Shown: positions 3,149 to 34,781, counted from the stretch's first letter. The stretch is 35,256 nt of DNA from a virus (IMGVR_UViG_2684622582_000004); one strand, 5' to 3'. Translations and numbers: made by a program. The notes: generated by a model not told the origin, from the letters alone.

Positions 3149-3235
3149 GCTGAAAAACATAACCCATAAAATGCTAGCTGTACCAGGAACCACCTCCTTA
3201 GCCTGTGTAATCGCCCTTACACGGGCTTATTTTTT
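3149..3235 (+). ncRNA. cyaR: CyaR (RyeE) Hfq-dependent small RNA
   Basis: Sequence GCTGAAAAACATAACCCATAAAATGCTAGCTGTACCAGGAACCACCTCCTTAGCCTGTGTAATCGCCCTTACACGGGCTTATTTTTT matches remembered E. coli cyaR. It ends in a terminator hairpin (stem 3201-3210 / 3217-3226) plus a U-run. It lies between yegQ and an ogr homolog as in K-12. Confidence 0.8.
3209..3235. repeat. prophage att core copy at the ogr end (AATCGCCCTTACACGGGCTTATTTTTT)
   Basis: 27-bp segment repeated at 34755-34781 with a single mismatch (G at 3213 versus T at 34759). It matches my recollection of the 27-bp P2 attP core (AATCTCCCTTACACGGGCTTATTTTTT). Confidence 0.8.
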
Positions 3236-3299
3236 ACGCGTAATACAATGAAATAAAAGGATTTATTTCTGGTCACGTCCACACATTGACCACATCGAC

Positions 3300-3323
3300 A
3301 AAAAAGCCCCTCGACTGAGGGGC
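3300..3323 (-). terminator. rho-independent terminator downstream of ogr
   Basis: Stem GCCCCTC (3306-3312) / GAGGGGC (3317-3323) with loop GACT, followed on the minus strand by six U (complement of A 3300-3305). Confidence 0.6.
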
Positions 3324-3336
3324 TTCCTGTTTGTAA

Positions 3337-3555
3337 TTACATCCACATAATTTGCTGCCCTGACGGCAACGGGTGCGGTCTTACGGCGTGGACTTCTCCC
3401 GGCTTCACGATGTATCGCTGTACCGACTCATAAGTGATGAACGTGGCGCTGCAATTCACGTTCTGACACTGGTGATAACGCTCTTTTGTCGTGTCAGTGA
3501 TATAGCGGCTTGTACGCGCATGTGCGGCATGCTGGCATAAAGGACAATGAAACAT
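3337..3555 (-). CDS. ogr: Ogr late-gene transcriptional activator (C4 zinc finger), 72 aa
   Basis: MFHCPLCQHAAHARTSRYITDTTKERYHQCQNVNCSATF... with a C-x2-C...C-x4-C zinc finger. ATG at 3555 (the ORF-track start at 3618 is TTG). Length matches P2 Ogr. Confidence 0.9.
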   Translation of the reverse strand: MFHCPLCQHAAHARTSRYITDTTKERYHQCQNVNCSATFITYESVQRYIVKPGEVHAVRPHPLPSGQQIMWM

Positions 3556-3636
3556 CGCGAGCACCTCTTCCGGTTTTGTTGATGGTGCCATTTTAGTTAA
3601 TTTATCCTTATAAAACAAACAGATAAAATAAAAACA

Positions 3637-4800
3637 TCACTCATCATCTTCTGTTTCGTACTCCACATCAGAAAGCCTGACCTCAAGCTCCAAGGACGTC
3701 GTGAAGCCGCTATTATTCAGAAAATGTGTCACCTTAGTGATTGTCCAGTCCTGCTCGTCTATGACGCGCTTAAAGCCTGACACTTTAACCGGTGTTTCCG
3801 TGTAAATATCAGCACGACCGGTAGCCAGACTGATGGAGAACTCCGCAACGCCCCGTTGCAGCTTATCCCACTTCGCCTGAGCGGCGCGCATGGCCTGCGC
3901 TTTCGTGGCATATACCGTGGTCAGGGCAAAAACGTTGTCAGCCTCACCGGCCATGTATTCACCTTCACGCGCTTCCGGTACTTTAGGCGCTTTCTTCTGC
4001 CTGACCGGTTTCGCGTTCGGGTGCTCCAGTGCGCGCAGGTGTTTCTCTTTCTTTTTGCGTTTCAGTTTTACCTTCTGCTTTTGCGGTTTCGGGTCTTTGG
4101 TGTGTAACCACTTTGCCGTTACGCCTGTATAGGCTCCGCGGTCAGCAATCGCAAAATGATGACGGTCGCCGTCGCTGCGGGTGATGGTAATCTGCGGGAT
4201 TTTTTTACCGCTGGCCGTCACCCCCTGCCCCGCTTTGAGAAACAGCAGTTTTCCCATTTTTACCGACACCTCACCGCCGTTGCGTTCAGCAAGACGGGTC
4301 AGGAATTTCGCATCAGACTCCTGCGACTGGTCGATGTGCGGGATTTTAATTCCTGCCAGTGACGGCGCGACACTGGCTTCCAGCCTGTTACGGGAGGCTA
4401 TCGCCTCAACAATCGCACCGAGCGTGGTGTCATGCCATGAGCCTTCACGGCGGGAATTGAGCGTCCCGCGAAAATCTGCACTCCGGGCGCGGATGGTGAC
4501 CACATCCGGTGCGCCCCGGTGTTCAACCTCATCAACGGTGAATTTCCCTTTGCATACCAGGGCAAAACCTTTCCAGCCGATATACACCGTCAGGACAGCG
4601 CCACGAACCGGCAGCCCGACCTGCCCGTCGGTATCGTTCAGTTCAATATCAAGCTGGTCAGCCTCAAAGCCCCGGTTATCCGTCAGGGTCATACTCATCA
4701 GACGGTCGCTGATATTGCCGGTAATATCCCTGCTGTCGAGCATCAGCATGTAATCCGGCGTCAGCGTACTGCCTGCATCAAATGTCAGTGCATCCAGCAT
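3637..4800 (-). CDS. D: tail protein D (P2 gpD-like), 387 aa
   Basis: Position next to ogr and length identical to P2 gpD. Its ATG overlaps the U stop (TAATG). Confidence 0.87.
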   Translation of the reverse strand: MLDALTFDAGSTLTPDYMLMLDSRDITGNISDRLMSMTLTDNRGFEADQLDIELNDTDGQVGLPVRGAVLTVYIGWKGFALVCKGKFTVDEVEHRGAPDVVTIRARSADFRGTLNSRREGSWHDTTLGAIVEAIASRNRLEASVAPSLAGIKIPHIDQSQESDAKFLTRLAERNGGEVSVKMGKLLFLKAGQGVTASGKKIPQITITRSDGDRHHFAIADRGAYTGVTAKWLHTKDPKPQKQKVKLKRKKKEKHLRALEHPNAKPVRQKKAPKVPEAREGEYMAGEADNVFALTTVYATKAQAMRAAQAKWDKLQRGVAEFSISLATGRADIYTETPVKVSGFKRVIDEQDWTITKVTHFLNNSGFTTSLELEVRLSDVEYETEDDE

Positions 4801-5279
4801 TATTCCGCCCCCGTCATCCCCGTGAATTTAGTCGCCATACTGCCAGCCTTACCGATGAGCGATTCTGCCTGTTTACCGATATCGCCATAAAGCGCGGCCA
4901 GTGATTCATCCACGCGGGTGAGTGACAGCGTAAAATCAATTTTCCGGGGTGTGCCGTCTGCAAAGAAAATACTCCCTGTTTCACTCACCCTGCTGATGAC
5001 ATACATGCCGTAAATCATGCCTGTGCCATCCAGCAACGGCCACGCCCGGCCTTCCTCTGCCATCAGTCTGAGCGTGGTCATCGTCAGCTTGCCGCCGGTC
5101 AGTTCGGGATAAAGCACACCGGCAAGCGTCATGTTTTCCTCACCAACGCCGAGAAACTGGTAGGCATCCCGTTTACCGATACGGGAATTTGACGGCCAGC
5201 GATAATCTGATTCACGCTGCATGGTCTGGTGTGGCAGCGTCTGGCGCATAAAAACAAACATACCTAACGCGAGCATCAT
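4800..5279 (-). CDS. U: tail protein U (P2 gpU-like), 159 aa
   Basis: Synteny and P2-matching length. Confidence 0.87.
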   Translation of the reverse strand: MMLALGMFVFMRQTLPHQTMQRESDYRWPSNSRIGKRDAYQFLGVGEENMTLAGVLYPELTGGKLTMTTLRLMAEEGRAWPLLDGTGMIYGMYVISRVSETGSIFFADGTPRKIDFTLSLTRVDESLAALYGDIGKQAESLIGKAGSMATKFTGMTGAE

Positions 5280-5293
5280 TTTTCGTCACCTCC

Positions 5294-7741
5294 TTAACCG
5301 TCATGCATCATGCTGGCACGGGCGCGCGCACGTTTATCCCGCTCGTATTTTTCGAGCGCATCCTGTAACTGGCGGTCAAGCTGTGTCCCCGGTGCAGTAC
5401 CACCCGTCAGGCTGATGTGATATTCGTTTTTACTCTGGTCCACATAAGAGCGGCCAGCCGGTGCCGTGACCGGCTGATAAGCCTGATAACCTGCATAAGA
5501 GCTGGTCGCCGGAATATAACCACCGCTGCCATACGTGGCGGCTTGAGTTCTGGCGGCGGTCTGGTCAAGTGTGTCTGACTCTTTGTTGATAACACCGAGT
5601 TTTTCCAGTACCCAGTCAATACCACTGCGCAGTTTGTTGAACGCATTAAGCGGCAGCATCAGCGCGTCAGCCAGTGCCTGCCCGAACATGACGCCCGTGT
5701 CACGGCAACGGTTCAGGGTGTCCTGGGTAGCTTTGACCGGGGCAATCAGGTTTTTAAACCACTGCCACGCGGCCTGTAACTTTTCACCCAGCCAGTCAAA
5801 CACCGGCTTAAGTGGCGTGAACAGTTCCCCCACTGGCGCAAATGCTGCTTTCAGCCCTTCAACCACACCGCCAAAGAATGCGCTGACAGGCTCCCAGTAT
5901 TTACGGATAAGCAACGCCCCGGCGACAATGGTGGCCACCACGGCCACAACCGGCCAGCTAATCGCCCCGATGGCGGTCATAACAGCACTGCCAACCGTCG
6001 TGAAGACTGCCCCCATTGCGCCTGCTGCCGCGATGATGGCATTAATGCCGGTGATAACCGGCCAGGCTACAAGACCAATTGCACCGATGATGCCAGTAAG
6101 CGCCAGTGCACCACCGACAATAAGGCCGATGGTTGACGCCAGTGATTTGTTTTTCTGGATCCAGCCGTCGAGTTTTAACACATACTTTGTGGCCGTCTGC
6201 GTGAGCTTACGCAGTGCGCCTGCCTGCTGGTCAAACAGGTCAGTCCCCACCGCCTCATAAGCGGACTGAAACTCCTTAAAGTCACCGCCGAGGTTGTCCT
6301 GCATGATATTTACCAGCTCTGCGGTCTTTCCGTCTGAGGCTTTAAACGCAGCGGTCAGTTTGTCCAGCTTTCCGGTTGAGGCGGCAGTCATCAGCACGGC
6401 GGCGGCTGAACTGGCCTCCTCCCCGAAAATGGTTTTCATGTATTCAGCCTGCTGGGCAGTACCGAGCCGGTTTTTCTCAAAGCTGGCCTGCATTTCTTTC
6501 AGAATGGTAAATACTGGCCGGGTGTTTCCCTTACTGTCTGAGGTTTTCACGCCAAGCTCTTTCAGTGCATCCCATGCTTTTCCCGTCGGTGCCTGCAGGC
6601 GGCTTAACACGGCACGGCTTCCCGTCCCCGCCATTGAACCGGTAATTTTTGCATCATGCAGCGCCCCGACCATTGCGGCGGTTTCTTCAATGCTGACACC
6701 AGCATTTTTTGACACAGGTGCGGCATAGGTCAGCGCATCGCTCATGCCATCAAAATCGGCGGCGGTTTTGTTCATCGTCATGGAGAGAACATCCCCGATA
6801 TGAGCGACCTTATCGTTTGAAAGCTGAAAGGCGGATTTCATCCCCATCAGCAGGGCGGCGTTTTCTTCCATCGTGCGGCGGTTCGCCAGCGCCATGTTCA
6901 GCGTGACCGGCGTTGCCGCCTGAATGGCATCAACATCCCCACCCGCTTTCGCGATGATAATCTGTGCACCGGCTGCATCATCTGCCGAGGCGGCGGTATT
7001 GTCGCCGAGCTGGCGCGCCTGCTTGCGTAGCGCGGCCATTTCGGCAGAGTCTTTTTCCACACCGAGCACGGCCTGTAATTCTGAGTTTTTCTGCGCAAAC
7101 TCATAACCGGGCATCAGCAGCTTAACTCCGGCCATCGTTCCCGCCGCCGCAATACCCACACCGGCAGCGCCCACCGAGGCCATATTTCCGGCCAGTTCCT
7201 TTCCGACCTGATAACGCTGTTTTACTGCATTAAGTTTTGCCTGTTGCGCACTGACACGCGCCAGCGCATCACGCTGACGGTTAAGCTGTGTGGTGGTTTC
7301 GCTGATACGATTTTTCAGCCCTCGTTCATCATGCGCCAGATTACGGGTATTAATACCCGCCTGACTCAATTCCTGACGCTGGCGCTGTACCGACAATCTC
7401 AGGCTGTTATATTTCGCCTGTAACTCAGACGCGTTTTTACGCGCGGCTTCCATTGCCTTTGCCTGTGCATTTGTCGGTCGTTCAGTATTTGTAAACTGGA
7501 CAGCCAGAGCTGCGGCTTCCTGTCTGGCTTTTTTCAGTTCCTGACCAGTCACGGCTAGCTGTGCACTGGTCTTGCGGAATCCCTCAATACGGGATGCGTG
7601 ACCGTTCAGCTCGCGCAGCGATTTTTGTGTTTCCCGGATGTCCCCCGACAGCGACTTACTCGCTGTGCGGATGGATTTAAACGGGCGGGATGCCTGGTCA
7701 ACAGCCCTGAGCAATACCTTTAATTTTACATTGTTACTCAT
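5294..7741 (-). CDS. T: tail tape-measure protein (P2 gpT-like), 815 aa
   Basis: Long Ala/Gln-rich coiled-coil-like N-terminal part and hydrophobic Gly/Ala-rich middle, typical of tape-measure proteins. Position between E/E' and U; P2 gpT length. Confidence 0.88.
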   Translation of the reverse strand: MSNNVKLKVLLRAVDQASRPFKSIRTASKSLSGDIRETQKSLRELNGHASRIEGFRKTSAQLAVTGQELKKARQEAAALAVQFTNTERPTNAQAKAMEAARKNASELQAKYNSLRLSVQRQRQELSQAGINTRNLAHDERGLKNRISETTTQLNRQRDALARVSAQQAKLNAVKQRYQVGKELAGNMASVGAAGVGIAAAGTMAGVKLLMPGYEFAQKNSELQAVLGVEKDSAEMAALRKQARQLGDNTAASADDAAGAQIIIAKAGGDVDAIQAATPVTLNMALANRRTMEENAALLMGMKSAFQLSNDKVAHIGDVLSMTMNKTAADFDGMSDALTYAAPVSKNAGVSIEETAAMVGALHDAKITGSMAGTGSRAVLSRLQAPTGKAWDALKELGVKTSDSKGNTRPVFTILKEMQASFEKNRLGTAQQAEYMKTIFGEEASSAAAVLMTAASTGKLDKLTAAFKASDGKTAELVNIMQDNLGGDFKEFQSAYEAVGTDLFDQQAGALRKLTQTATKYVLKLDGWIQKNKSLASTIGLIVGGALALTGIIGAIGLVAWPVITGINAIIAAAGAMGAVFTTVGSAVMTAIGAISWPVVAVVATIVAGALLIRKYWEPVSAFFGGVVEGLKAAFAPVGELFTPLKPVFDWLGEKLQAAWQWFKNLIAPVKATQDTLNRCRDTGVMFGQALADALMLPLNAFNKLRSGIDWVLEKLGVINKESDTLDQTAARTQAATYGSGGYIPATSSYAGYQAYQPVTAPAGRSYVDQSKNEYHISLTGGTAPGTQLDRQLQDALEKYERDKRARARASMMHDG

Positions 7742-8161
7742 TCGTGTTTCCGCTTCGCCGGAGCGCCTTTTCGCGCCATGTGATGAGTTCGCTCAGACTC
7801 ATGGGATACAGTTCTGATGGCGGCCAGTGAAATATCACTGCCACATCCGCCATCAGGTCATCGACCGACAGATTTTTCGGAAACGTCACTGCACCGAGTT
7901 CGGCGACAAAAAACCGACCACCTTACCGGCCAGCGCCACAAGGTCAGGCAGTTCCAGCGCGGCGACTTCCTGCTCGGTCAGCATCGGTGCCGTCATGCGC
8001 GGCAGCACTTTAATCAGTGCATCGACTTCGGAGTTTGCGACCGCAGCCAGACTGACACCGCGCAGCGTCCCGGCATTGGGTTTCATCAGCGTGACCTGTT
8101 CGATGACCTGCTCACCACGCTTGACCGGATTGTCCAGGGTAATCACATTTTCTTTGTTCAT
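7734..8161 (-). CDS. E+E': frameshift-extended tail chaperone E+E' (142 aa), product of -1 programmed ribosomal frameshift
   Basis: Heptamer T TTT TTG (minus strand, 7913-7907) is in the zero frame of E. Hand translation of the -1 frame continues ...GFL-VAELGAVTFPKNLSVDDLMADVAVIFHWPPSELYPMSLSELITWREKALRRSGNTNE to TAA at 7736-7734, giving 142 aa, the P2 E+E' length. Confidence 0.75.
7886..8161 (-). CDS. E: tail assembly chaperone E (P2 gpE-like), 91 aa
   Basis: 91-aa ORF ending ...GFLSPNSVQ, with a slippery heptamer near its 3' end. Confidence 0.85.
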   Translation of the reverse strand: MNKENVITLDNPVKRGEQVIEQVTLMKPNAGTLRGVSLAAVANSEVDALIKVLPRMTAPMLTEQEVAALELPDLVALAGKVVGFLSPNSVQ

Positions 8162-8218
8162 GGTTTTCTCACTTCTGAATCGGGGGTTAACCGGTCAGCC
8201 TGGCTGACCGGATGAAAA

Positions 8219-8737
8219 TCACAGGCCGATATTGCGGCGGTGTTGCTCCAGCCGGTCGACGCCGTTCACCTTCTCAATCATGTTGATGGTGTCAATTTCG
8301 ACCAGCTCCTTACCGTCCATCGTCAGCCGGAAATAGGTGCAGACCACGGAGATTTTCGACTCGGTGTCTTCTCCCTGCTTACCCTCGCCGGTGTCGATTT
8401 CTTTCTGACGTCCACGCATGACCACTTCGACGGCCACCGTTTCGCCGGTATCGTCGCGCTGGTAAGAGCCTGCAAAACGAATCGGCACGGCATCCACACC
8501 GGTTGCGGCGTAAAGCTCCCAGATAACCGAATCCGGGAATCCACCGAGCGACCACTCCATTGACAGCGCATCGTCATCAAGGCCGAGGTCTACCGGTGCG
8601 CTGCCGTTCATCCCCGCACCGCGATAGTTTTCGAGCTTACGGGTCAGTTTTGGCAGCGTGACGGACTTTGCAACGCCCTGATAGCTGTAGCCGTTCAGAA
8701 AGACGTTCATTAACTTGAGTTTGCGCGGCATTGCCAT
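8219..8737 (-). CDS. FII: tail tube protein (P2 gpFII-like), 172 aa
   Basis: Synteny and P2-matching length; ATG at 8737. Confidence 0.87.
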   Translation of the reverse strand: MAMPRKLKLMNVFLNGYSYQGVAKSVTLPKLTRKLENYRGAGMNGSAPVDLGLDDDALSMEWSLGGFPDSVIWELYAATGVDAVPIRFAGSYQRDDTGETVAVEVVMRGRQKEIDTGEGKQGEDTESKISVVCTYFRLTMDGKELVEIDTINMIEKVNGVDRLEQHRRNIGL

Positions 8738-8749
8738 CGGTCAGGCTCC

Positions 8750-9940
8750 TTAATTGCTGTTAACCGAGGTAACCAGACTTGCCAGGTATCTGGAAGTAAT
8801 ACGCTGGCGCAGGGTCAGGTTTTCGAGAGGAGGCACCGGGGTATAGTCGTAGTCGATATACAGTTTTCCGGCCTTGAGGGTTTCCGCATCATTGGCTTCT
8901 TCACTGAACCAGCATGTGCCATCCACGATATAACCGTTGTTTTTCAGTTCGCGGAATTTGGCATTAATGCCATCAATGATGTCACGAATCAGCGTTGCGG
9001 TAATTGGCTTATCAATAGCCCACATGTGCGCCTCGGCCATCGTGTCGGCCAGTACCTGCGCGGTGCGGGTGTAGCTTTCAAAGAGGAACAGCGGGTCATC
9101 AGAGCAGGTACGGTTACCCCAGAAGCGGAAGCCGTCGCGGCGAATCAGCGTAGTGATGCCTGACTCGTTAAGCAGGTCAGCATCAGTGCCGGACTTCTGC
9201 AAATCCCAGAATACAGAGGCGCTGATGCCGGTAACACCATTTACCCCGACGTTGGACAGCGTTTTATGCCAGCCCTGCTCCTGGTCGATTTTGGCACGCA
9301 GCCCCAGCGCACGGGCGGTGGCATACGCGGTGGCAGTGGTACTGGTAACCGTATCCCATGCGAGGAAATCCGGCCAGATGACCATCAGCTCACGCTGGCT
9401 GAAATTCTGACGGTAGGCTTTTGCCTCGGAAATGGTTTTACAGCCCCATGCGCTGATATACCCGAATGCATTCAGTTCCTGGCATACCGATGCCAGTGCG
9501 ACGGCAACCTCTTTGGTGTCCAGCCCCGGCACACCAAGAATGCGCGGTTTAACGCCGGTAACCGACTCAGCCCCCATCAGGGCTTTCAGTCCGGTGTACT
9601 GACCGTTTTCGTCAGTGGTGCCGATGATATTGGAAACGGTCTGCGCGAGTTTCGTTTCCTCGTCGTCGCCGGTGCTGTCTTCCACACGCACGACAACGGT
9701 GACCGGTTTTGACTGGTCGGCGATAGCCTGCAACGATGCCGCCAGCGTGCCTTTTTTACCGGCCTTTGCAATCGCGCTCTGCACATTGGTAATCAGCACC
9801 GGTTTATTGAGGGGAAAGGTTTCCGCATCCGCATCGCTGGCCGTGCAGACCATGCCGACAATGGCAGTGGATACGGTGGAAATGACGCGGGTGCCGTCGT
9901 TAATCTCCAGCACCTGCACGCCGTGATGATAGTCACTCAT
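8750..9940 (-). CDS. FI: tail sheath protein (P2 gpFI-like), 396 aa
   Basis: Synteny and P2-matching length; ATG at 9940. Confidence 0.88.
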   Translation of the reverse strand: MSDYHHGVQVLEINDGTRVISTVSTAIVGMVCTASDADAETFPLNKPVLITNVQSAIAKAGKKGTLAASLQAIADQSKPVTVVVRVEDSTGDDEETKLAQTVSNIIGTTDENGQYTGLKALMGAESVTGVKPRILGVPGLDTKEVAVALASVCQELNAFGYISAWGCKTISEAKAYRQNFSQRELMVIWPDFLAWDTVTSTTATAYATARALGLRAKIDQEQGWHKTLSNVGVNGVTGISASVFWDLQKSGTDADLLNESGITTLIRRDGFRFWGNRTCSDDPLFLFESYTRTAQVLADTMAEAHMWAIDKPITATLIRDIIDGINAKFRELKNNGYIVDGTCWFSEEANDAETLKAGKLYIDYDYTPVPPLENLTLRQRITSRYLASLVTSVNSN

Positions 9941-10105
9941 CCGTTTAACTCCGTGGTTAATGGGTGAGTGGTATTTTCTGTTGTGCCGGAGATGTCAGGC
10001 TATTTGTCCCGGTTGGCTAATCGACAGCACAACCACCGGTAAAGAAAAGGCGGGCAATTCGCTCACCTGCCCTGATTTGTACTCACTTATTTTCCGACTG
10101 ACAAT

Positions 10106-10213
10106 TTATTTACCTTCCAACTCAAGTCTAATCCGGATCCCCCAGATATGAGATATCTGAAGTGGCCTTTTTTGACCGATGGTACGGTCTTTATTCCACG
10201 GTGATGTTTTCAT
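10106..10213 (-). CDS. possible small basic protein (35 aa), speculative
   Basis: ATG at 10213 preceded by GGAGA about 7 nt upstream. The SD lies in the arm of a 9-bp-stem hairpin (10217-10225 / 10235-10243). No homology recognised. Confidence 0.2.
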   Translation of the reverse strand: MKTSPWNKDRTIGQKRPLQISHIWGIRIRLELEGK

Positions 10214-10319
10214 ATTCAAATCTCCTGCAATGTGGGAGATTTGAGTATGGTTGTCTCTCAAGAGCGAAAATAAGTCAACTATCACTAGTTGTTGCGCATG
10301 TACGTATTCTGTCAATTAA

Positions 10320-11162
10320 TTATTGACAATCATCAATTCTGGAATGATCAAAATCATCATATCGAATTATAGTCTGGTTGACTGTATCTATTGTTGGTGT
10401 CATTTCTGTTATAATATCCTGATAACCTAAAGAGTTAAATACATTTACTAAGGCCTCACACCGAAGGGCCGTAGCAATTACAAAATTATAAATTGCCAGC
10501 CGTTTATTTTCTTGTTTAACTGCAAGAATGAATTCGATAGCAGTAGTTTCATCACTTTGGATTGCATTATATAGAGATACTATATTTACCATATCATCAG
10601 AGAATGTATGTATTGAATCACAAAGGGGAACGTAATGGGCATGATAGTGTGTTTCCCAGCCAATTAATTCAAAAAGTTTTCTGGTTCCTGGATATTCAGG
10701 TGTATTTGGCCACAATCTATTAAATAGATCAGTTAGTTCTTTTCCCATGCGAATCCTTTCATTTGCTGCTGGATTAGTCATTCCTTTGGATTTTAAACAC
10801 TCCAGCCACCGTTTTCCATTACTATGAACTAATTTCTTACTAGCCTTGAGTAATGCTTGTGCATTTTCGCCATCATCTATTGCTATATAAAATTGATTGG
10901 CAGCCTGTTCTATTATAACCCTAGCTAATACTTCCGATGCTGAAAAGGCTCCTATATTCAAAGAAGAGATAGCCTGATTACTAAGTTCATTCAGTACATT
11001 AAAGTACTGTAAGACCATCAATTTTTGTTCCACACCCTTTAGGTTGTCTATTTTATTTTTATGCTCCTCAAATTTTGCATGGATATATTTATTTATCGCG
11101 GCTATTTTTTTTACATCTTCGTCAAGATCAAACGGGCAACGTCCAAACAATTCTTTTTTCAT
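10320..11162 (-). CDS. hypothetical protein, 280 aa, AT-rich cargo gene in the P2 Z/fun moron slot (function unknown)
   Basis: ATG at 11162 with AGGAGA SD 7 nt upstream and a TATAAT -10 at 11206-11201 (minus strand). Hand-counted sample lines are ~28-42% GC versus ~55% in flanking tail genes. No family motif recognised. Confidence 0.7.
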   Translation of the reverse strand: MKKELFGRCPFDLDEDVKKIAAINKYIHAKFEEHKNKIDNLKGVEQKLMVLQYFNVLNELSNQAISSLNIGAFSASEVLARVIIEQAANQFYIAIDDGENAQALLKASKKLVHSNGKRWLECLKSKGMTNPAANERIRMGKELTDLFNRLWPNTPEYPGTRKLFELIGWETHYHAHYVPLCDSIHTFSDDMVNIVSLYNAIQSDETTAIEFILAVKQENKRLAIYNFVIATALRCEALVNVFNSLGYQDIITEMTPTIDTVNQTIIRYDDFDHSRIDDCQ

Positions 11163-11200
11163 ATATTTCTCCTGTTGTACAAGCTTCCATAAGTTGGCAG

Positions 11201-11206
11201 ATTATA
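11201..11206 (-). promoter_or_regulatory. candidate sigma70 -10 hexamer (TATAAT) for the 280-aa cargo gene
   Basis: Perfect TATAAT about 35 nt upstream of the ATG. No good -35 seen. Confidence 0.3.
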
Positions 11207-11583
11207 CACTGAAGATTACCTATAAATAGCTGTGCGGGATAGCAGATCAGTGCAAGAAGTACAACCAAGTGAACTGTGCGTATTCAGATACCTGGCCTAA
11301 CGTTCGCGATAGCCGTCCCCTGCACAAAGCCATATATTAGATGTATTAGCTCAGACCTTATCTGACAGGTTGAGTAGGTAGAATCTAATCAAAGCTGACA
11401 GTCTGGTTTGGACTGTGAGTTCAACCGATGGATGCAACACACAGCGATCTACGGACATTACTAGCATAGCTGTGTATTAATCATCGGGGAGCAGGTCAGT
11501 CCGCTCCTAGCACAGAGCAGACTGTCAGATTAGGCTTTACTCTGTGCTATAGATACGTTAGCTCACTCCAGAGATCATACAAC

Positions 11584-12111: not shown

Positions 12112-12114
12112 AAA

Positions 12115-14856: not shown

Positions 14857-14866
14857 TGTTTCTCAC

Positions 14867-16298: not shown

Positions 16299-16302
16299 GG
16301 TT

Positions 16303-20000: not shown

Positions 20001-20003
20001 GCG

Positions 20004-21559: not shown

Positions 21560-21562
21560 CGG

Positions 21563-22636: not shown

Positions 22637-22694
22637 AGTTTTTCCTGAAATTAAGGGTTAATCGTGAAGGTTTTCCCGGACTGACTGACGCCGG

Positions 22695-26529: not shown

Positions 26530-26534
26530 ACATC

Positions 26535-26556
26535 GCCGCCTGCGGGCGGCTTTTTT
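26535..26556 (+). terminator. rho-independent terminator after Q
   Basis: GCCGCC-TGCG-GGCGGC hairpin followed by TTTTTT. Confidence 0.65.
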
Positions 26557-26698
26557 ACAACCCGCCATCACGCCCTCACACGCTCACCACCGCACAAAAC
26601 ATCCCACAGACACACCAACGCCCCGGCGAACAATCTAAACGCCATCACGACGCGCTCAGGCGCTGAAAAAATAAAATCAGCACCACCGCCAGCGCGCA

Positions 26699-26717
26699 GT
26701 GCTTTCCCCGCCTCGCC
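26699..26717. other. cos site (19-nt cohesive end sequence of P2-type phages)
   Basis: GTGCTTTCCCCGCCTCGCC is the reverse complement of GGCGAGGCGGGGAAAGCAC, which I recall as the P2 cohesive end. It sits downstream of Q where cos is expected. Confidence 0.65.
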
Positions 26718-26868
26718 CGCCCGCTTCATGGGTCGGTTTGAATGCAGTTGAATTACAACTACCAAACCAAGCAATCCCTACTATTACGCAGAAAATGCAT
26801 ACTGAAATACCTCGTGCAAATTGATGCAGCTAAGTATGCATAGGTTTTATGCCTCAACGTATACGTTA

Positions 26869-28701
26869 TCAAACAGAGCCCTGTTCAAAAACAGTATCAA
26901 AATATGGTAGGAGAGGATAAGCACACAGAAAGAAAATCAGGATGCATGCATATGTCGTTGTTTCATCGTAACAAGCATCAGTATATAAATTACCATGTGC
27001 TAATTTATGTCTTAAGGTTGCCCCACTCTTTCTGTTAAAAAGAACATCGATAGTCAAAACAAGATTTTTAGAAAAGATACTTTCCAAATCATCTCTGCAT
27101 TTATCTAGAAGCTGAGAAATACTTGTTGACTCCTCTAATCCCTTATCCAAATATCTAGTAGCATCCTTTCCACTAAGCTCATAATAATAACGAACCATAC
27201 CTTCCATTTGTGGTATTAAAAGATAAGCTGCACTGATGTAATCTCCCTGCCATAATTTGTAAAAGCCCAAATTAAAAATCTCCCTAAACTCCGGCTTGAC
27301 AATTGGACTAGTTGTAACCAATTTAACGAATGTTGACAACGTCAAGCCATGTTCTTGAGAAAGTACATAGCGAGCAGGTTCAAAGACACCGTTTACAAAA
27401 ATCTTATGAGTAATCTCGAAATTTCTTAGATATTGATCAATAACAACATCATCACTCATATCTTTTTTATTATCCAACGGCGGGATTGTATATATCTTAC
27501 GCCCACTCTCATCATTAATTTCTGTTCCAACAAAACTAGAGAATAAACTTTTTTCTGATAATCTTAAAACTTGTTCCCTCATGCTTTCAATATTTTCAAT
27601 CGGTGTTTCACTCATTAAAACTTTGAATATATCGGGCAAAGAACGCCCCGTCAGTTTTTTTTCACTTTCAGCAACCAAGTCACTAATATCAATAGAATGG
27701 CTTAAAGTGACATATTCACTCCTTACTTCTTCTCTCAAATTAGCAAGTTGTTCCTTTAAATCTTCTATCTGTTGGCTATCACCACCGTACTGTCTTAATT
27801 CAGAGATAGCTGTTCTTAACCAAGAGATCTTACCCATATTATCAGGTCGTTCTGTTGCAACTTTAATAGTAATATTTGCAGATGCCAGTTTACATCTCTT
27901 GGCACGTTCATACTCACCATTTTTTTCATAAATAACTGCACTTGTCATATAAAGTGATTTTACAGCATCATAATATTTTTTATCTTTATGCTGCTCAGCC
28001 ATCTTCTCAGCATTTTCCGCATACTGCAGATTATACCCATCAAAATCACGCACCATAAACCAAGTCAAATTATTGAAACCTTCAAAGATTAATCTTTCAT
28101 TTTGAATACTATAAAGAGAATGAATGGCATTTTTAATCGCCATGTTTCCTTCTGATTTTCTAGGGTAGACCATTTTATTAATGTGCAAAGCCCTAGCAAT
28201 ATAATCACGAGCAAAAATAAAGCAATTTAAATCACTTTCATCCATGCTTTCGTTTTTTATTATTAGCTTTTCAATTGCTATATTTAGCATTTCAGCATAG
28301 GAATCAATTGCTTTAATTGCCACGTCTTTATTTTTCCGATTATTACACCAAACAACATCATATATTCTTGATAACAAAAATGGATTGGTTATTTTTTGAG
28401 AAACATATAAAAGACAGTCATTCACCTGCTCATCAAAATCTTCAGGCAATATTGATCTTTTATTACCCCAAATCATTTGGGGTTCAAATGATGGAGTGTT
28501 GTTAACAACTTGCAAATTGAAACTATATAGCATACCAAAAAGAGATGCTAATTTTTTCTCTTTGGGGTTTTCTGATGACTCAGCAATCCCATCCAGATAT
28601 TTTTTTATTTTATGTGCATGAAATGTAACTGGTATATACATAAAAACACTATAATCTAGTGTTTCAAGCTCTTCCCTTGTAAGAACAAAGATATCATTCA
28701 T
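26869..28701 (-). CDS. hypothetical protein, ~610 aa, AT-rich cargo gene in the P2 old/tin moron slot (function unknown)
   Basis: ATG at 28701 preceded by AAGGTG SD (the ORF-track start at 28806 is TTG). A hand-counted sample (27001-27060) is ~33% GC. No Walker A, so not Old-like. C-terminal ...TLRHKLAHGNLY contains an R-x4-H pattern. Confidence 0.7.
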   Translation of the reverse strand: MNDIFVLTREELETLDYSVFMYIPVTFHAHKIKKYLDGIAESSENPKEKKLASLFGMLYSFNLQVVNNTPSFEPQMIWGNKRSILPEDFDEQVNDCLLYVSQKITNPFLLSRIYDVVWCNNRKNKDVAIKAIDSYAEMLNIAIEKLIIKNESMDESDLNCFIFARDYIARALHINKMVYPRKSEGNMAIKNAIHSLYSIQNERLIFEGFNNLTWFMVRDFDGYNLQYAENAEKMAEQHKDKKYYDAVKSLYMTSAVIYEKNGEYERAKRCKLASANITIKVATERPDNMGKISWLRTAISELRQYGGDSQQIEDLKEQLANLREEVRSEYVTLSHSIDISDLVAESEKKLTGRSLPDIFKVLMSETPIENIESMREQVLRLSEKSLFSSFVGTEINDESGRKIYTIPPLDNKKDMSDDVVIDQYLRNFEITHKIFVNGVFEPARYVLSQEHGLTLSTFVKLVTTSPIVKPEFREIFNLGFYKLWQGDYISAAYLLIPQMEGMVRYYYELSGKDATRYLDKGLEESTSISQLLDKCRDDLESIFSKNLVLTIDVLFNRKSGATLRHKLAHGNLYTDACYDETTTYACILIFFLCAYPLLPYFDTVFEQGSV

Positions 28702-28820
28702 CGTTTTCACCTTTTTCAGTATAAATTTGCACGCATTATTATTAGCAACATAATCATCAATAGTTAACACATGCAGATAGACAGCAATTTTACTATTATG
28801 CAACAAATTAAATCAGATGT

Positions 28821-31103
28821 TTATTGCTCTGAATAACAATAAAACCAACTCCACTCATCAGCGACCGGATACGTAAATTTTTTCCCGTTGTAATTTACGG
28901 TCGCTCCACGCGCCAGCGCCTCCATCTCCCATCGCTGCGGCCTGATACCGTTCTGAGCAAGGTCAACGCGGATACGGATAATTTGCATTCGTTCCGACCG
29001 GGTCAGTCTGGCCGATGGCGCTATTTCATGCGGTTTTAGCGGGCTTCCGTTTCTTTGCTGACGATTTAGCGTTCTCAGCCCGTGTTTTAATGCGCCCCTG
29101 AGCGCCTTCACGACCTCCGGGTCATTCCATTCGATAACACCGTCATTAACCAGATTAAGCACTGCTGCGGCGTGCTCAGAAGGTGTGGGAGCCGGTAACG
29201 AAGTATCACCACCAGTGAGCTTTCCACAGTTATTGACAGGACTCCGAGGCGCGGCGATGCCGCTTTTTAAAGTCAAAGGCTCAACGACCGGAACTTTCGG
29301 CACAATGCGCCAGTCCGTCGTTCTGGTGATATGAATATGACGCGCGCCGAGATGCGGCGCGTAAATGCCGACCACTCTCTCGACTTCTTCCTCGTACTCG
29401 TTAACTTCATCCGACGGGCTACGGGCGACTCTGACAGTCTGACAATCGCGCGGGACATTTGCCCCACCCTGCGCGCTGATATACAACGCAAAATCACCAC
29501 TGTCTGCGGCGGCGCGTGCAGCCTCGACGCGCTCGTCAAACTCATCAGCAATGCTGACGCCGCGCGGCAATTTGCGTAGTTCACGGTAAGCCCCCATTGT
29601 CGGCAGGCCAACCGTTTTAAATTGCGGGATGCGCCACGTTGACGCCCATGCGGTAACAGCCGCTGCAGTGTCTTTCAGCGGCCTGCCGGTGTCGTTATCG
29701 AGCTGACCATCCAGTGCATAGCCGTCGATGTTTTTTGAAATGTATTTCGCGATATATCCCGCAGCACCGCCCCGGTTAAGGTGTTTTGCCTGAAAACGGT
29801 TTCGCGCGGCTCCTCTTTCGTCGCCATCCTCTTTGAGCGCATAGCGACGCATGATTTCGATAATCTGGTTACGCTGGCGTGAATTACAAAAAAGCATCAT
29901 ATGCCAGTGCGGCGTTCCGTCGTGGTGTGGCTCGACGACACGCAAACCGTAGACCTGTAAATCATTATCCTTGAATGCCGTGCGCATCAGGCTCCAGATA
30001 CGGCAGAGATAACGCTGCGCATCCTTTGGATTAAATGCCTCATCGTTCCAGCCGTGATTAAGCTGCACGGTTTTACTTTCGCCTTTTCCTACCTGACGTG
30101 TCGGGTGATACTTTGACGGCGCGGTCAGCGTGATAAACATCCCCACATCACCCTCTGCAGCGGCGTAACGCTCAATACCGGCAATGGTGTTCATCAGCTC
30201 CATCCGGCGAATTTCAGGATTAGAAATACTGCCCATCACCTTACTGATAAGGTCGATGCGCTCGCCGGTTTCCCTGTTTTCAAGGTCACACGATTTAAGA
30301 AATTCCAGATTTGCCTGGCGGCGCGCACGCACATCACGAATGGCGTGTTTACTGGCATAAGGAGAACGGTCTTTATTGACCTCCCCGACAGCTATCAGTA
30401 ACGCTTCATGCCAGCGCATACGCTGGCCTTTAAGCTGATGAGTCCACCACTCATCGTTAAACAGACGGGCAATGGCAGAATATGCCTGCCTCGTGGTCAT
30501 CTGTCCTTTACGGTATTTTTTCCAGTAGAGCGGGGAAATATTGAAAGCACGTGCAGCGCCAGCAACATGACCATACAGGTGAGCCTGCGCCTCATCCGTA
30601 AACAGCGATTCTTTTTCACCATGCGCATCAACCCATGCATCGCAGAGTTCCTCATACATCATGAAAAGCTGCGATGAGATACGGGCGGCAAACTTTTTCA
30701 GCTCCTTGTCATTCATTCCCGGCAGGCGCGCATAGTGGTCACGCTCTGCCAGAAACAGCAACGACGCGTCGGTGTTCATTTCATGGCGCTGATTCACACG
30801 CTCAATGCGCGGCCATAAACGACGCTGAAAAGTAGATGTGAGGAAATAAAACCCGTGCACCGGGCTTTTATTGCGCCGGATGTAGTCATAGCGTGAAGTA
30901 AACAGCGAGCGCAAAAAGTAAGGCAGGCGGTTAATCGTGGATAAAACACCTTGCACCTGACGCATCTCGTCACGTGTAAGAGGTCTTTCGCGCCCGACAG
31001 CCTCGCGTGGCGCGTTCCATGCATAAGCACCGGTAAACGCCTTACCGGTGCCTGCGGTAAATGCTGACGGAGGGACAAAACGCCCGGAGGCTTTAACGGC
31101 CAT
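28821..31103 (-). CDS. A: replication initiation endonuclease (P2 gpA-like), 760 aa
   Basis: ATG at 31103 (MAVKASGRFVPP...); the ORF-track start at 31145 is TTG. Size and position as P2 gpA. Confidence 0.87.
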   Translation of the reverse strand: MAVKASGRFVPPSAFTAGTGKAFTGAYAWNAPREAVGRERPLTRDEMRQVQGVLSTINRLPYFLRSLFTSRYDYIRRNKSPVHGFYFLTSTFQRRLWPRIERVNQRHEMNTDASLLFLAERDHYARLPGMNDKELKKFAARISSQLFMMYEELCDAWVDAHGEKESLFTDEAQAHLYGHVAGAARAFNISPLYWKKYRKGQMTTRQAYSAIARLFNDEWWTHQLKGQRMRWHEALLIAVGEVNKDRSPYASKHAIRDVRARRQANLEFLKSCDLENRETGERIDLISKVMGSISNPEIRRMELMNTIAGIERYAAAEGDVGMFITLTAPSKYHPTRQVGKGESKTVQLNHGWNDEAFNPKDAQRYLCRIWSLMRTAFKDNDLQVYGLRVVEPHHDGTPHWHMMLFCNSRQRNQIIEIMRRYALKEDGDERGAARNRFQAKHLNRGGAAGYIAKYISKNIDGYALDGQLDNDTGRPLKDTAAAVTAWASTWRIPQFKTVGLPTMGAYRELRKLPRGVSIADEFDERVEAARAAADSGDFALYISAQGGANVPRDCQTVRVARSPSDEVNEYEEEVERVVGIYAPHLGARHIHITRTTDWRIVPKVPVVEPLTLKSGIAAPRSPVNNCGKLTGGDTSLPAPTPSEHAAAVLNLVNDGVIEWNDPEVVKALRGALKHGLRTLNRQQRNGSPLKPHEIAPSARLTRSERMQIIRIRVDLAQNGIRPQRWEMEALARGATVNYNGKKFTYPVADEWSWFYCYSEQ

Positions 31104-31368
31104 ATGAGCCAAAAGCCTCTGAACAACGCTTGCTGAGTTGCTCAACCTGCGCGTTTAAATCAGCAAAAGATTTTGCGCTTCCGGTCAGAATATCGTGATG
31201 CATCAGGCCGGAAACGAGCTGGCCTAATTTCGGGTAATAACCAACCACCGCCAGCCATTCCTGACCGGCGTTTTTACCGCTTTCCGCTCTCTTTTTCTCG
31301 TGGAGAATAAACTGAAAGCTGTCACTGGTAACGACATAACGTTCGCCAATTTCAATACGAATACTCAT
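31093..31368 (-). CDS. small early protein (P2 orf83 position), 91 aa
   Basis: Synteny only. Confidence 0.6.
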   Translation of the reverse strand: MSIRIEIGERYVVTSDSFQFILHEKKRAESGKNAGQEWLAVVGYYPKLGQLVSGLMHHDILTGSAKSFADLNAQVEQLSKRCSEAFGSYGR

Positions 31369-31589
31369 GCCGTTCTCCGGTAATGTTTGTTTTTTGCTTC
31401 AAAGACTGACTGACAGGAAACACAACGCGTGGCTGACGGATAAGCCGCACGACGGGCAGCAGGTATTGGCGCGTCACACTCTTCGCAAACCAGCGCAGAA
31501 ACACCGCAATGTTTTACCCTTGCCGCGTTAATCTGGCGCTCCAGTAATTCAGCCTGTTGTTCCTGAATAAAATCCACGTTGTCCGGCAT
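31365..31589 (-). CDS. TraR/DksA-type C4 zinc-finger protein (P2 orf82 position), 74 aa
   Basis: CEEC-x17-CVSC motif; synteny. Confidence 0.7.
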   Translation of the reverse strand: MPDNVDFIQEQQAELLERQINAARVKHCGVSALVCEECDAPIPAARRAAYPSATRCVSCQSVFEAKNKHYRRTA

Positions 31590-31894
31590 TACCAGCTCCT
31601 TTTGTCGTTCAGCTTCTTAAATTCATCAGCGCAATAACTGGCGAGTTCTGTCGTTAATTTTGTCAGTTCATCCACTGAGGAAATTTGCTTGTGGAATACA
31701 GCGCGTTTAACAAGTAAATTGACCACATCAGACAGGAGGTTTAATTCACTCTGATAAATCGCGATAACAGATTCAGTTATTTCGCGCTTCTCTTTATCAA
31801 TACCAAGTTGAATAAGAGACAAATCACCATTTTTCATAACGGCGATTTTTAAGGCGTTATTCAGTAATACAACCGAACGAGAACAGGACATCAA
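31589..31894 (-). CDS. small early protein (P2 orf81 position), 101 aa
   Basis: Synteny only. Confidence 0.6.
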
Positions 31895-32115
31895 AGCACC
31901 TCCCCGCGAGACAATCCGATATTGTGAAATTTTTCCGACTCCTGACTGAGCAGCTCAACTATCTCCACGCGGGATAACTCCGCCTTTGTGATGTGGCGAA
32001 TCATGGCGTCAAGATGAGAAGAAAAGCGCGTCGCAGCGTCGGCCTGTGCTTCGGTTCTGGCCTGTTGCAGCAGTAATGCGTATTTACCGCACTGATTTTC
32101 AGAAACTGTATGCAT
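31891..32115 (-). CDS. small early protein (P2 orf80 position), 74 aa
   Basis: Synteny only. Confidence 0.6.
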
Positions 32116-32178
32116 GACTTTCTCCAGGCAAAAAGAAGCCCCGCACGATTAAGTGCGTTAAAAACTCTGGTTAATTAT

Positions 32179-32685
32179 TTAATGCAGATATTGCTCTGGT
32201 TTTACCGACGTCAGAATTGTCGGTGCATACTCAAACAGACTGAATAATTCACGTAATGCACGGAATAAAGCATCACGCCAGTAACATGATTCTTCATTAA
32301 TTCGCCAGTACGGCTGATTGAATTCTTTTTCTGTCAATCCCGCATGCATAAATAAAGTACGACGCTGACTGACTGTTAAAAAACTAATATATGCATACTC
32401 ACTTGCGCCGACCTGACGGCGTTTTGAGAATGCGCCACGCAATTCATCAATTGCACAAACCAGTCGTTCACGTTCGACGTCGTTCATTTCTTCAAAACGC
32501 ATCGTTGCGTGACGCTGTTTTAACTGTGCATGAAAGCAAACCGTTAGCCGTTCGCGCTCCATCATCTGATTATAATAATCACATGTATCCAGCCAGCGAG
32601 GGACGGCAAGATGCTTGCCAATTATCCGGCGCATAGCTGCTGGCTGTTTTTCAACGAGATTGAGCGTCATCACTGTCATTTCCAT
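32179..32685 (-). CDS. B: replication protein B (P2 gpB-like), 166-168 aa
   Basis: ATG at 32685 or 32679; synteny and P2-like length. Confidence 0.75.
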   Translation of the reverse strand: MEMTVMTLNLVEKQPAAMRRIIGKHLAVPRWLDTCDYYNQMMERERLTVCFHAQLKQRHATMRFEEMNDVERERLVCAIDELRGAFSKRRQVGASEYAYISFLTVSQRRTLFMHAGLTEKEFNQPYWRINEESCYWRDALFRALRELFSLFEYAPTILTSVKPEQYLH

Positions 32686-32846
32686 ACCCTCCGGCTTTTC
32701 AGAAAGGTCAGAGCCTTTTTTAACGGACTCTGTTTTTTGGTGCGGATAATGATTCCCTTACGCCCCTTACCGTGGGTGATGGTGAAGTCAATCGCCCTGG
32801 GGCTTTCGTTACGCAGTAACTGAGCAATACAACGAGGCTCATTCAT
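32676..32846 (-). CDS. small early protein (P2 orf78 position), 56 aa
   Basis: In-frame ATG at 32846 with AAGGAG SD; the ORF-track start at 32870 is GTG. Confidence 0.5.
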   Translation of the reverse strand: MNEPRCIAQLLRNESPRAIDFTITHGKGRKGIIIRTKKQSPLKKALTFLKSRRVWK

Positions 32847-32856
32847 ACGGTTCTCC

Positions 32857-33132
32857 TTAACGTGGTTCACCGAGACCTAACCACATCAACCAGCCGTCAC
32901 GAATCTCTTTAGGTCGGCTTTCATAAGCCAGTTTTAGTCCGTTATTCCATGCCGGAAGGTATACCCAATATTCACCTGCACGACCTGAAGCTGATTGTGG
33001 ATCGGTCATATCAATTACAGGCAGCTTTCCTTTATCGATCATCCGACGAACCGCTCCTGTCGATTTTCCTATTAGTTTTGCGAACTCCTGATAAGGAATC
33101 GCATCAGTCATGAGTGTTACTTGCTTGCTCAT
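32857..33132 (-). CDS. cox: Cox excisionase / early-promoter regulator, 91 aa
   Basis: First gene of the early operon, divergent from C; 91 aa as P2 Cox. Confidence 0.85.
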   Translation of the reverse strand: MSKQVTLMTDAIPYQEFAKLIGKSTGAVRRMIDKGKLPVIDMTDPQSASGRAGEYWVYLPAWNNGLKLAYESRPKEIRDGWLMWLGLGEPR

Positions 33133-33246
33133 GTCGTCCTCTAGCCCTCATGAATTGCGTTTAATGTCTTATAATGCCTTTTAGTGCCCACATCCAAGCA
33201 CTAAACAATCTACATCTAAACTAAATACTATTGAGATCTAAACACC
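33133..33246. promoter_or_regulatory. immunity switch region with two direct ATCTAAAC repeats (candidate C operators) and face-to-face promoters
   Basis: ATCTAAAC at 33214-33221 and 33236-33243, 22 bp centre to centre. Perfect plus-strand TATAAT at 33170-33175 (candidate Pc). Candidate Pe -10 on the minus strand lies between the repeats. Confidence 0.55.
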
Positions 33247-33546
33247 ATGTCAAACACGATAAGCGAGAAGATAGTCTTAATGCGAAAATCAGAGTATTTG
33301 AGCAGACAACAACTTGCTGATTTAACAGGGGTTCCGTATGGCACGCTGAGTTACTATGAAAGTGGTCGTTCAACACCTCCAACAGATGTCATGATGAACA
33401 TCCTGCAGACCCCACAATTCACCAAATACACTTTATGGTTCATGACCAATCAGATCGCTCCTGAGTCCGGGCAAATTGCGCCCGCTCTCGCACACTTTGG
33501 GCAAAACGAAACAACGTCGCCCCACTCCGGTCAAAAGACTGGTTAA
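33247..33546 (+). CDS. C: immunity repressor C (P2 C-like), 99 aa
   Basis: 99 aa; divergent from cox; immediately upstream of int. Confidence 0.87.
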   Translation: MSNTISEKIVLMRKSEYLSRQQLADLTGVPYGTLSYYESGRSTPPTDVMMNILQTPQFTKYTLWFMTNQIAPESGQIAPALAHFGQNETTSPHSGQKTG

Positions 33547-33661
33547 CAATTCATCGTGAATATATTCATCACAAGTGCCTACTATTGGTGGCTAAATTTC
33601 AGCCACCACGAAAAAAGCGATTAGTAGTCGCAAAAAAACACACCACTCGGAGGGTTTTCTG

Positions 33662-34675
33662 ATGGCAATCAAAAAACTCGATGATGGTCGATATGAAGTG
33701 GACATCCGCCCTACTGGACGTAATGGAAAACGCATCCGTAGGAAGTTTGATAAGAAAAGCGAAGCTGTCGCTTTCGAGAAATACACGTTGTACAACCACC
33801 ACAATAAAGAATGGCTATCAAAACCAACAGACAAGCGACGTCTGTCGGAGCTGACACAGATCTGGTGGGATTTAAAGGGTAAACACGAAGAGCATGGGAA
33901 ATCTAATCTTGGAAAAATTGAAATCTTCACAAAAATAACGAATGACCCATGCGCATTTCAAATTACGAAATCGCTTATCAGCCAGTACTGCGCCACCCGA
34001 AGAAGTCAGGGTATTAAACCTTCGAGTATCAATCGTGATTTAACATGTATTAGCGGCATGTTTACAGCCCTGATTGAAGCGGAGTTATTCTTTGGTGAGC
34101 ACCCTATCAGAGGGACAAAAAGGCTTAAGGAGGAAAAACCAGACACAGGCTATCTCACGCAGGAAGAAATTGCCTTACTGCTTGCTGCTCTTGACGGCGA
34201 CAACAAAAAGATTGCGATTCTTTGCCTGAGTACTGGAGCACGTTGGGGAGAAGCAGCTCGTTTGAAAGCAGAAAATATCATCCATAACCGCGTCACGTTT
34301 GTTAAAACGAAAACAAACAAACCACGCACCGTCCCGATCTCAGAGGCTGTTGCCAAAATGATCGCGGATAACAAACGAGGTTTTTTATTCCCTGATGCTG
34401 ATTACCCTCGCTTCAGACGAACAATGAAAGCAATAAAACCGGATTTGCCAATGGGGCAAGCCACACATGCACTAAGGCACAGCTTTGCCACTCATTTCAT
34501 GATTAATGGAGGAAGTATTATCACGCTACAACGGATACTAGGTCACACGCGGATTGAGCAAACTATGGTTTACGCTCATTTTGCGCCAGAGTACCTTCAG
34601 GACGCCATTTCTCTTAATCCGCTAAGAGGTGGTACTGAGGCCGAGAGTGTCCACACAGTGTCCACAGTAGAGTAA
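33662..34675 (+). CDS. int: tyrosine integrase (P2 Int-like), 337 aa
   Basis: C-terminal catalytic signature ...ATHALRHSFATHF...LGHTRIEQTMVYAHF (R, H-x-x-R, Y); adjacent to an att core; P2 Int length. Confidence 0.9.
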   Translation: MAIKKLDDGRYEVDIRPTGRNGKRIRRKFDKKSEAVAFEKYTLYNHHNKEWLSKPTDKRRLSELTQIWWDLKGKHEEHGKSNLGKIEIFTKITNDPCAFQITKSLISQYCATRRSQGIKPSSINRDLTCISGMFTALIEAELFFGEHPIRGTKRLKEEKPDTGYLTQEEIALLLAALDGDNKKIAILCLSTGARWGEAARLKAENIIHNRVTFVKTKTNKPRTVPISEAVAKMIADNKRGFLFPDADYPRFRRTMKAIKPDLPMGQATHALRHSFATHFMINGGSIITLQRILGHTRIEQTMVYAHFAPEYLQDAISLNPLRGGTEAESVHTVSTVE

Positions 34676-34754
34676 CGTTTAAGGGCTTTCAGTGGTAATT
34701 TATGCCGCTCAAACCCGCATTGTACCGTTGAAAGCCCCTACTGGTGACACCCTA

Positions 34755-34781
34755 AATCTCCCTTACACGGGCTTATTTTTT
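34755..34781. repeat. prophage att core copy at the int end (AATCTCCCTTACACGGGCTTATTTTTT)
   Basis: Direct repeat of 3209-3235 with one mismatch. Confidence 0.8.

Follow-up and report, generated by a model that had tools for sequence, protein, structure and literature searches.

A P2-type prophage with distinct cargo at the cyaR attachment site, compared with phage P2 and the cryptic remnant of Escherichia coli K-12

Prophages of the P2 family are established occupants of the small RNA gene cyaR in Escherichia coli. 'cyaR RNA' is listed as the insertion site of Wphi2 (P2) in strain W, of 'ogr-D'' in K-12 and of P2*B in strain B (Archer et al. 2011, PMC3032704 Table 2), and a P2-like remnant in K-12 is recorded in the title of Barreiro & Haggard-Ljungquist 1992. 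Published P2 cargo hotspots include the TO and Z regions of these phages, and the gpA-gpQ hotspot has been described as a defence reservoir (Rousset et al. 2022, PMC9122126). Here we describe a stretch of DNA from IMGVR_UViG_2684622582_000004, 35,256 nucleotides (nt) long and referred to throughout as the window, in which positions 3209-34781 very probably hold an apparently functional, complete prophage of a temperate myovirus of P2 type (Peduovirus), inserted into cyaR at the site that P2 uses. The element joins the early, immunity and integration module of P2 (NC_001895) to late genes of the type found in Yersinia phage L-413C (NC_004745), and it carries cargo in both hotspots that is foreign to P2. 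Published work already covers cyaR as an insertion site of P2-type prophages, the remnant in K-12 and the cargo hotspots; none of these is new, and the locus introduces no new principle.

Gene content and control sites compared with P2

All 42 annotated P2 proteins were searched against the window by tblastn. Matches were found for 37, in P2 order, each a single full-length match except the tail fibre H, which fell into two pieces; apart from this mosaic protein, all are 89-100% identical to their P2 counterparts. Ogr, C, Cox, orf78, W, Y and FII are 100% identical, P (99.8%), Int and N (99.7% each) and Q (99.1%) are nearly so, and the lowest identities are those of G (89%) and of FI, lysA, T and lysC (about 94-95%). 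Nucleotide blocks 92.8-97.8% identical to P2 span about 27 of the 31.5 kb. All 39 defined reading frames are open, with no stop codon, frameshift or insertion sequence (IS) element, and the essential set (Q P O N M L X Y K R S V W J I H G FI FII E E' T U D ogr int C cox B A) is intact; disrupted essential genes, named beforehand as a result that would refute an intact prophage, were not found on alignment. The P2 genes for which tblastn gave no match in the window, orf30, orf91, fun(Z), tin and old, are all annotated as non-essential in P2. A preliminary description of this DNA had claimed a complete P2-collinear gene set between two attachment (att) cores, with different cargo in both moron slots, and both claims are upheld, the first by full-length matches in P2 order with open frames, the second by non-P2 DNA in each slot.

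The cis-acting sites annotated in P2 were placed on the window by local alignment (Table 1). Two of the three annotated Ogr sites tested, those of pF and of pO/pP, are exact. In immunity and integration type the element is that of P2, with C, Cox, Int, the operators O1/O2, Pc, the arm and Cox sites and the attR core all in agreement.

With these parts, the prophage would be expected to follow the P2 life cycle. P2 Int would integrate the phage core into the identical bacterial core that overlaps the cyaR terminator, and recombination at this common core would rebuild the CyaR 3' end, so that the small RNA remains intact. Lysogeny would be held by the C repressor at O1/O2 over Pe, and the lytic switch would run through Cox, with Cox, Int and IHF driving excision. 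For rolling-circle replication, A would nick at ori and act with B; Ogr would switch on late transcription in four operons, with cleavage at cos by the P/M terminase. P2 is not SOS-inducible, and the same is expected of this prophage, since its repressor is P2 C and lacks an autocleavage domain. The prophage should thus fail to respond to mitomycin C, so that the induction test proposed in the preliminary description would not be decisive. The host strain is probably a P2-immune lysogen, and because Cox and Ogr are identical to those of P2 it is probably also able to help P4-type satellites.

Table 1. Features of the window, in order of position (aa, amino acids; GC, guanine-plus-cytosine fraction; ORF, open reading frame; HTH, helix-turn-helix; fractions give matching positions in alignment to P2 unless stated otherwise)
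Feature	Position	Strand	Details
PcfJ-like gene, 404 aa	1-1215	-	low-GC left flank
DUF1266 ORF, 73 aa	1440-1661	-	low-GC left flank
yegQ/trhP, left bacterial flank gene	1703-3064	+	Pfam Peptidase_U32 5e-89; PGAP name in matching genomes; aligns to K-12 trhP
cyaR small RNA gene	3147-3232	+	Rfam RF00112, 96.8 bits vs gathering score 47, model positions 1-85 of 85
attL core	3209-3235		overlaps CyaR terminator; 26/27 identical to P2 core; G at 3213
P2 IHF site	3234-3267	-	alignment score 24/34, diverged
Int P arm	3271-3298	-	28/28
ogr terminator	3303-3325	-	23/24
ogr, late-gene activator, 72 aa	3337-3555	-	Pfam Ogr_Delta
F operon gene D	3637-4800	-	tail; operon span 3637-9940, 94.4-100% identity to P2
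F operon gene U	4800-5279	-	tail, full length
F operon gene T	5294-7741	-	tail, full length
E+E'	7734-8161	-	-1 frameshift product of 142 aa as in P2; slip site exact
E' slip site	within E+E'		31/31
F operon gene E	7886-8161	-	tail, full length
F operon gene FII	8219-8737	-	tail, full length
F operon gene FI	8750-9940	-	tail, full length
Ogr-binding site of late promoter pF	10009-10037	-	29/29
Small tyrosine recombinase stub, 35 codons	10106-10213	-	downstream of DUF5677 gene
Z/fun slot cargo	10109-11498	-	no P2 homology; GC about 0.37
AT-rich region upstream of DUF5677 gene, 336 nt	within 10109-11498
Inverted repeat, 19-bp stem	10210-10250		precedes recombinase stub
DUF5677 gene, 280 aa	10320-11162	-	Pfam PF18928; phrog_4167; PGAP annotation in IHE3034 and S88
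V operon gene G	11584-12111	-	operon span 11584-17282
V operon gene H, tail fibre	12115-14856	-	913 aa, open frame, L-413C type
V operon gene I	14867-15397	-
V operon gene J	15390-16298	-
V operon gene W	16303-16650	-
V operon gene V	16647-17282	-
O operon: S, R, lysC, lysB, lysA, K, Y, X, L, M, N, O	17349-23549	-	94-100% identity, full length, no internal stops
Ogr-binding site common to pO and pP	23629-23659	-	31/31
P, large terminase	23723-25495	+
Q, portal	25495-26529	+
cos, 19-nt cohesive-end sequence	26699-26717	-	19/19
tin/old hotspot cargo	26762-28850	-	no P2 homology; GC 0.33; single gene
DUF7380/TPR-like/HEPN-like gene, 610 aa	26869-28701	-	ATG as in PGAP; DUF7380 2e-38; phrog_5183
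Early operon gene A	28821-31103	-	operon span 28821-33132
ori nick region, inside A	29230-29260		31/31
Early operon orf83, orf82, orf81, orf80	between A and B	-
Early operon gene B	32179-32679	-
Early operon orf78	between B and cox	-
cox	32857-33132	-
Pc promoter	33150-33175		26/26
Pe promoter and operators O1/O2	33214-33253		40/40
C immunity repressor	33247-33546	+	HTH domain only, no S24 peptidase
int	33662-34675	+
Int P' arm	within 34641-34738	-	27/27
Cox-binding sites	within 34641-34738	-	74/74
attR core	34755-34781		AATCTCCCTTACACGGGCTTATTTTTT; exact reverse complement of annotated P2 attP core (P2 24356-24382)
yegR, right bacterial flank gene	34939-35256	-	aligns to K-12 yegR; PGAP name in empty-site genomes

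The cyaR site and the K-12 remnant

Judged from its sequence, the prophage occupies the classical attachment site of P2, where cyaR ends, and measures 31,546 bp from core to core. We take this site to be the one called locI in the 1992 work of Barreiro and Haggard-Ljungquist. A repeat finder run on the window returns a direct repeat at 3209-3243 and 34755-34789, at whose start the two cores lie; by simple arithmetic, a pair of 27-mers with a single mismatch would be expected by chance about 3e-6 times in 35 kb. The preliminary description had reported two 27-bp copies of the core, and both are indeed present, but they are not identical: they differ at one base, with G at 3213 in attL where attR has T. 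Its further statement that the left core forms part of the CyaR terminator agrees with both the Rfam placement and the terminator fold. Loop, 3' stem arm and T-run of the terminator all come from the left core, position 3213 falls in the loop, and the predicted fold is the same with G or T at this position (-20.0 kcal/mol). A scan of the whole window against Rfam (E<=0.1) found no RNA family besides CyaR. The possibility that the G/T mismatch reflects a difference between attB and attP was rejected, because the phage base, T, is also present in the empty sites of two other strains; K-12 also has T at this position, and since the empty sites carry T, the G in attL is best read as a strain-specific single-nucleotide polymorphism.

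The ends of the element were defined with a synthetic excision product, in which 2800-3235 was joined to 34782-35256 with one core kept, giving 911 nt. This product is found as a single piece between yegQ and yegR in E. coli 95-3322 (911/911 nt, 99.9%), and because it is intact in a genome with an empty site, the cores mark the exact ends of the element. In 4565 of the 5426 complete E. coli genomes, 80% or more of the product lies in one place, and a large insert is present at the cyaR site in about one-sixth (about 16%) of complete genomes, a figure that is an upper bound. For purposes of annotation, the 31.5-kb block can be treated as one mobile element with precise ends that leaves cyaR intact.

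The bacterial DNA on either side of the prophage has features of its own. The left end of the window (about 1-1661), with a GC of 0.37-0.42, occupies the position of K-12 yegP, and its PcfJ-like/DUF1266 arrangement is common to about 298 of the 5426 complete genomes. To the right of attR, bacterial positions 34798-34841 resemble the phage Int P arm (3269-3312), with a local alignment score of 19 against a shuffle mean of 7.5 (standard deviation 1.3, maximum 14, 2000 shuffles), and the stretch closes with a 10-nt partial att core, AATCTCCCTT, at 34832-34841. The same P-arm-like sequence and partial core are found in the empty sites of other strains. Since a degenerate P arm and partial core are present even where no prophage is, the standard attB may itself be a scar, and the pattern suggests that the usual E. 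coli attB was left by an older P2-type prophage. When one genome per species was scanned for the exact pattern, only E. coli and Shigella flexneri genomes contained it; a scan that requires an exact match carries little information on more distant species.

In MG1655 nothing but cyaR, ogrK and the yegZ pseudogene is present at the site, under the annotation 'cryptic prophage PR-X'. Aligned to the window, the K-12 sequence matches positions 1612-3849 and then resumes at 34764-35256, so that annotation and alignment of the yegQ-yegR region concur with the earlier statement that K-12 has only an ogr/D remnant here. By this alignment, the remnant looks like such a prophage minus 3850-34763, from inside D to inside the attR core. 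The K-12 junction reads ...GAACTCTGC/TACACGGGC..., where D (...GAACTCTGC) abuts the second half of the attR core, TACACGGGCTTATTTTTT. The deletion end inside the attR core leaves a half core, which meets D at a short microhomology of CTCC type (K-12 stretch 4300-4330).

The preliminary description went further and saw in the window the ancestral state of the K-12 remnant. That the two are the same kind of element stands: they share site, orientation and left junction in cyaR, and the K-12 deletion ends within a genuine attR core, so the window does show, in kind, what K-12 formerly had. A shared lineage does not follow, as identity to the remnant is 97.4% for the window (over 611 nt), 97.2% for P2 and 91.9% for L-413C; the remnant, being as near to P2 as to the window prophage, does not establish direct descent. 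In about 16% of complete E. coli genomes the flanks are farther apart than the remnant would set them, and the elements carry varied cargo. Together, the K-12 identities and the occupied sites with varied cargo suggest repeated independent integrations, and we consider it somewhat more probable that the K-12 remnant derives from a P2-type integration of its own, with the window recording a parallel event.

Cargo genes in the Z/fun and tin/old slots

Both cargo genes recur in other P2-family prophages, and both have low GC, which indicates that they are horizontally acquired morons. They are most likely, from sequence and genomic position, genes of lysogenic conversion with anti-phage roles, and the 610-aa protein encoded in the tin/old slot is most likely a sensor-coupled RNase that aborts infection.

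For this 610-aa protein, the PADLOC profile of the candidate defence system PDC-S39 matches residues 75-633 at 2.8e-84; in the literature searched, no test of PDC-S39 was found. The motif R564-HKLA-H569 (R-x4-H) is invariant in 20 homologues and lies in a C-terminal region modelled as helical, and a structure search found the middle of the model to be weakly TPR-like (Z <=9.6). The C-terminal R-x4-H, a marginal match to DUF4209 and the TPR-like repeats give the protein a likeness to the C6orf70/DUF4209 family among the abortive-infection and toxin proteins with HEPN domains. DUF4209 has been placed in the HEPN RNase superfamily, with TPR fusions noted (Anantharaman et al. 2013). No solved HEPN structure was recovered by the structure search, NCBIfam gave no match, and a sequence search of the PDB returned nothing below E 0.1. 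In Kosakonia, a 186-like prophage has a homologue with 54% identity in its gpA-gpQ hotspot. In the window, the gene has the same orientation as A, lies 120 nt downstream of A at the position of P2 orf91, and runs opposite to P2 old and tin. Promoter-like sites are present at 28823-28795 and 28767-28738, and the gene might also be read through from the early operon.

The DUF5677 protein of the Z/fun slot matches its Pfam family at 40.1 bits (gathering score 27.1), and PF18928 was found in all 10 full-length or near-full-length database homologues. PADLOC and NCBIfam gave no match, and the sequence search of the PDB again returned nothing below E 0.1. Nine homologues share the invariant residues H173, C180-D181-S182, H184 and D188-D189; E84/Q85/N88, Y176, P178-L179 and S187 belong to the same invariant cluster of the family. 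The cluster looks like a metal or catalytic site, but it lies where the structure model has low confidence. In the prophage of E. coli S88, the Z slot also contains an intact 194-aa tyrosine recombinase and a 125-aa ORF (S88 stretch 1621-2605), both of which are deleted in the window. Since S88 retains the two, about 1 kb of cargo has been lost from the window, and a recombinase was the original partner of DUF5677. A homologue with 42% identity lies in a lambdoid-type prophage, where its neighbours are genes for a dCTP-deaminase/dUTPase-like protein (weak Pfam match), a HAD hydrolase, a DNA methylase and an AAA_15/AAA_21 ATPase.

Several results weigh against these assignments. The DUF4209 match of the 610-aa protein, at 19.8 bits, is below the Pfam cut-off of 22.3, and only 10 of 20 homologues match DUF4209 at E<0.01. 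In the one paper found to have tested a DUF5677 gene, on lactic-acid bacteria, this gene, of Enterococcus type, was not one of the five ORFs with defence activity, and structure searches of the cargo proteins gave only generic helical or TPR matches, which leave their functions unsupported. There is a real but less than even chance that the cargo is not anti-phage at all, and consists of selfish or neutral passengers, or of genes serving the phage in host takeover or, given the former recombinase partner of DUF5677, in regulation. The missing PADLOC match of DUF5677 and the generic structural matches are consistent with such roles, as is the direction of the HEPN-like gene, which, unlike old and tin, is that of the early gene A, so that it could be an early lytic gene. 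Defence functions are favoured instead by the location of both genes in documented hotspots rich in defence genes, by the PDC-S39 match and the invariance of R-x4-H, and by the low GC of both. Under the anti-phage interpretation, two more specific predictions can be offered tentatively: that the 610-aa protein acts as a single-gene abortive-infection RNase, recurrent in the gpA-gpQ hotspots of P2-family phages from several genera, and/or that DUF5677 supplies a second anti-phage or a recombinase-linked function. As reasonable candidates for a defence screen, the two uncharacterised genes are the sole forward-looking value of the locus.

Relatives, integrity and mosaic make-up

Prophages of this type are well represented. 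The first 21.8 kb of the element (3209-25000) are covered to at least 80% by 65 phage records, at up to 96.7% identity, and the same yegQ-cyaR/yegR site is occupied in E. coli S88, MS7163, N53 and N62 (B2-type strains). The prophages of S88 and MS7163 are 97.6% identical to the window over 96% of 25 kb and contain both the DUF5677 and the DUF7380 cargo, and the S88-type copies have an ISEc12 insertion, unlike the window prophage. The isolated P2-type Escherichia phage vB_EcoM-569R9 (ON470601.1) is 97.7% identical over 25000-32847 and carries the hotspot gene at 26869-28701, annotated there as a DUF4209 domain protein; the int/C end and attachment region are unmatched in its record.

Some points speak against a fully functional prophage. 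Intact reading frames do not amount to proof of plaque formation or excision, the IHF site is the least conserved of the att elements, and the region upstream of V, where orf30 is absent, gave no local alignment to P2 pV. The base that differs between attL and attR could in principle lower the efficiency of excision; it is peripheral within the core, and P2 Int accepts secondary sites of much lower quality. An element complete on paper but defective, that is, a recently grounded prophage at an earlier stage of K-12-type decay, could be argued from this mismatch, from the diverged IHF site, from the 94-95% identity of T and FI to P2, from the roughly 1-kb cargo deletion and from the ISEc12 insertions that show decay at this locus in the related S88 and MS7163 copies, but it is improbable, as none of the 39 frames checked has a stop, frameshift or IS, all tested cis sites but two are exact to P2, the diverged parts agree with viable isolated phages such as L-413C, and the deletion is confined to non-essential DNA. 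We therefore retain a complete P2-type prophage as the reading of the locus; its completeness, the identity of its sites and its boundaries are read directly from the sequence, and its viability is inferred.

P2 has in common with the window prophage its gene order, attP core, Int arm sites, Cox sites, operators, cos and ori, and differs in tail fibre H (669 aa in P2, 913 aa here, with the C-terminal two-thirds unlike) and in the cargo of both hotspots. L-413C, an isolated and viable relative of P2, is 97.7% identical to the window across 11499-26717, its H agrees at 912 of 913 aa, the S-V spacer that contains the pV region (17283-17348) is the same at 66/66 positions, and orf30 is absent from both. 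Its int/C/cox module is only 70-80% identical or unalignable to that of the window, which is P2's, and its cargo differs in both slots. The tail fibre of this plague-diagnostic Yersinia phage is here found in an E. coli prophage with P2 immunity. Since early, immunity and integration genes of P2 occur together with late genes and a tail fibre of L-413C type, the prophage is, as judged from these alignments, a mosaic in which a P2 early/immunity/integration module is joined to an L-413C-type late module.

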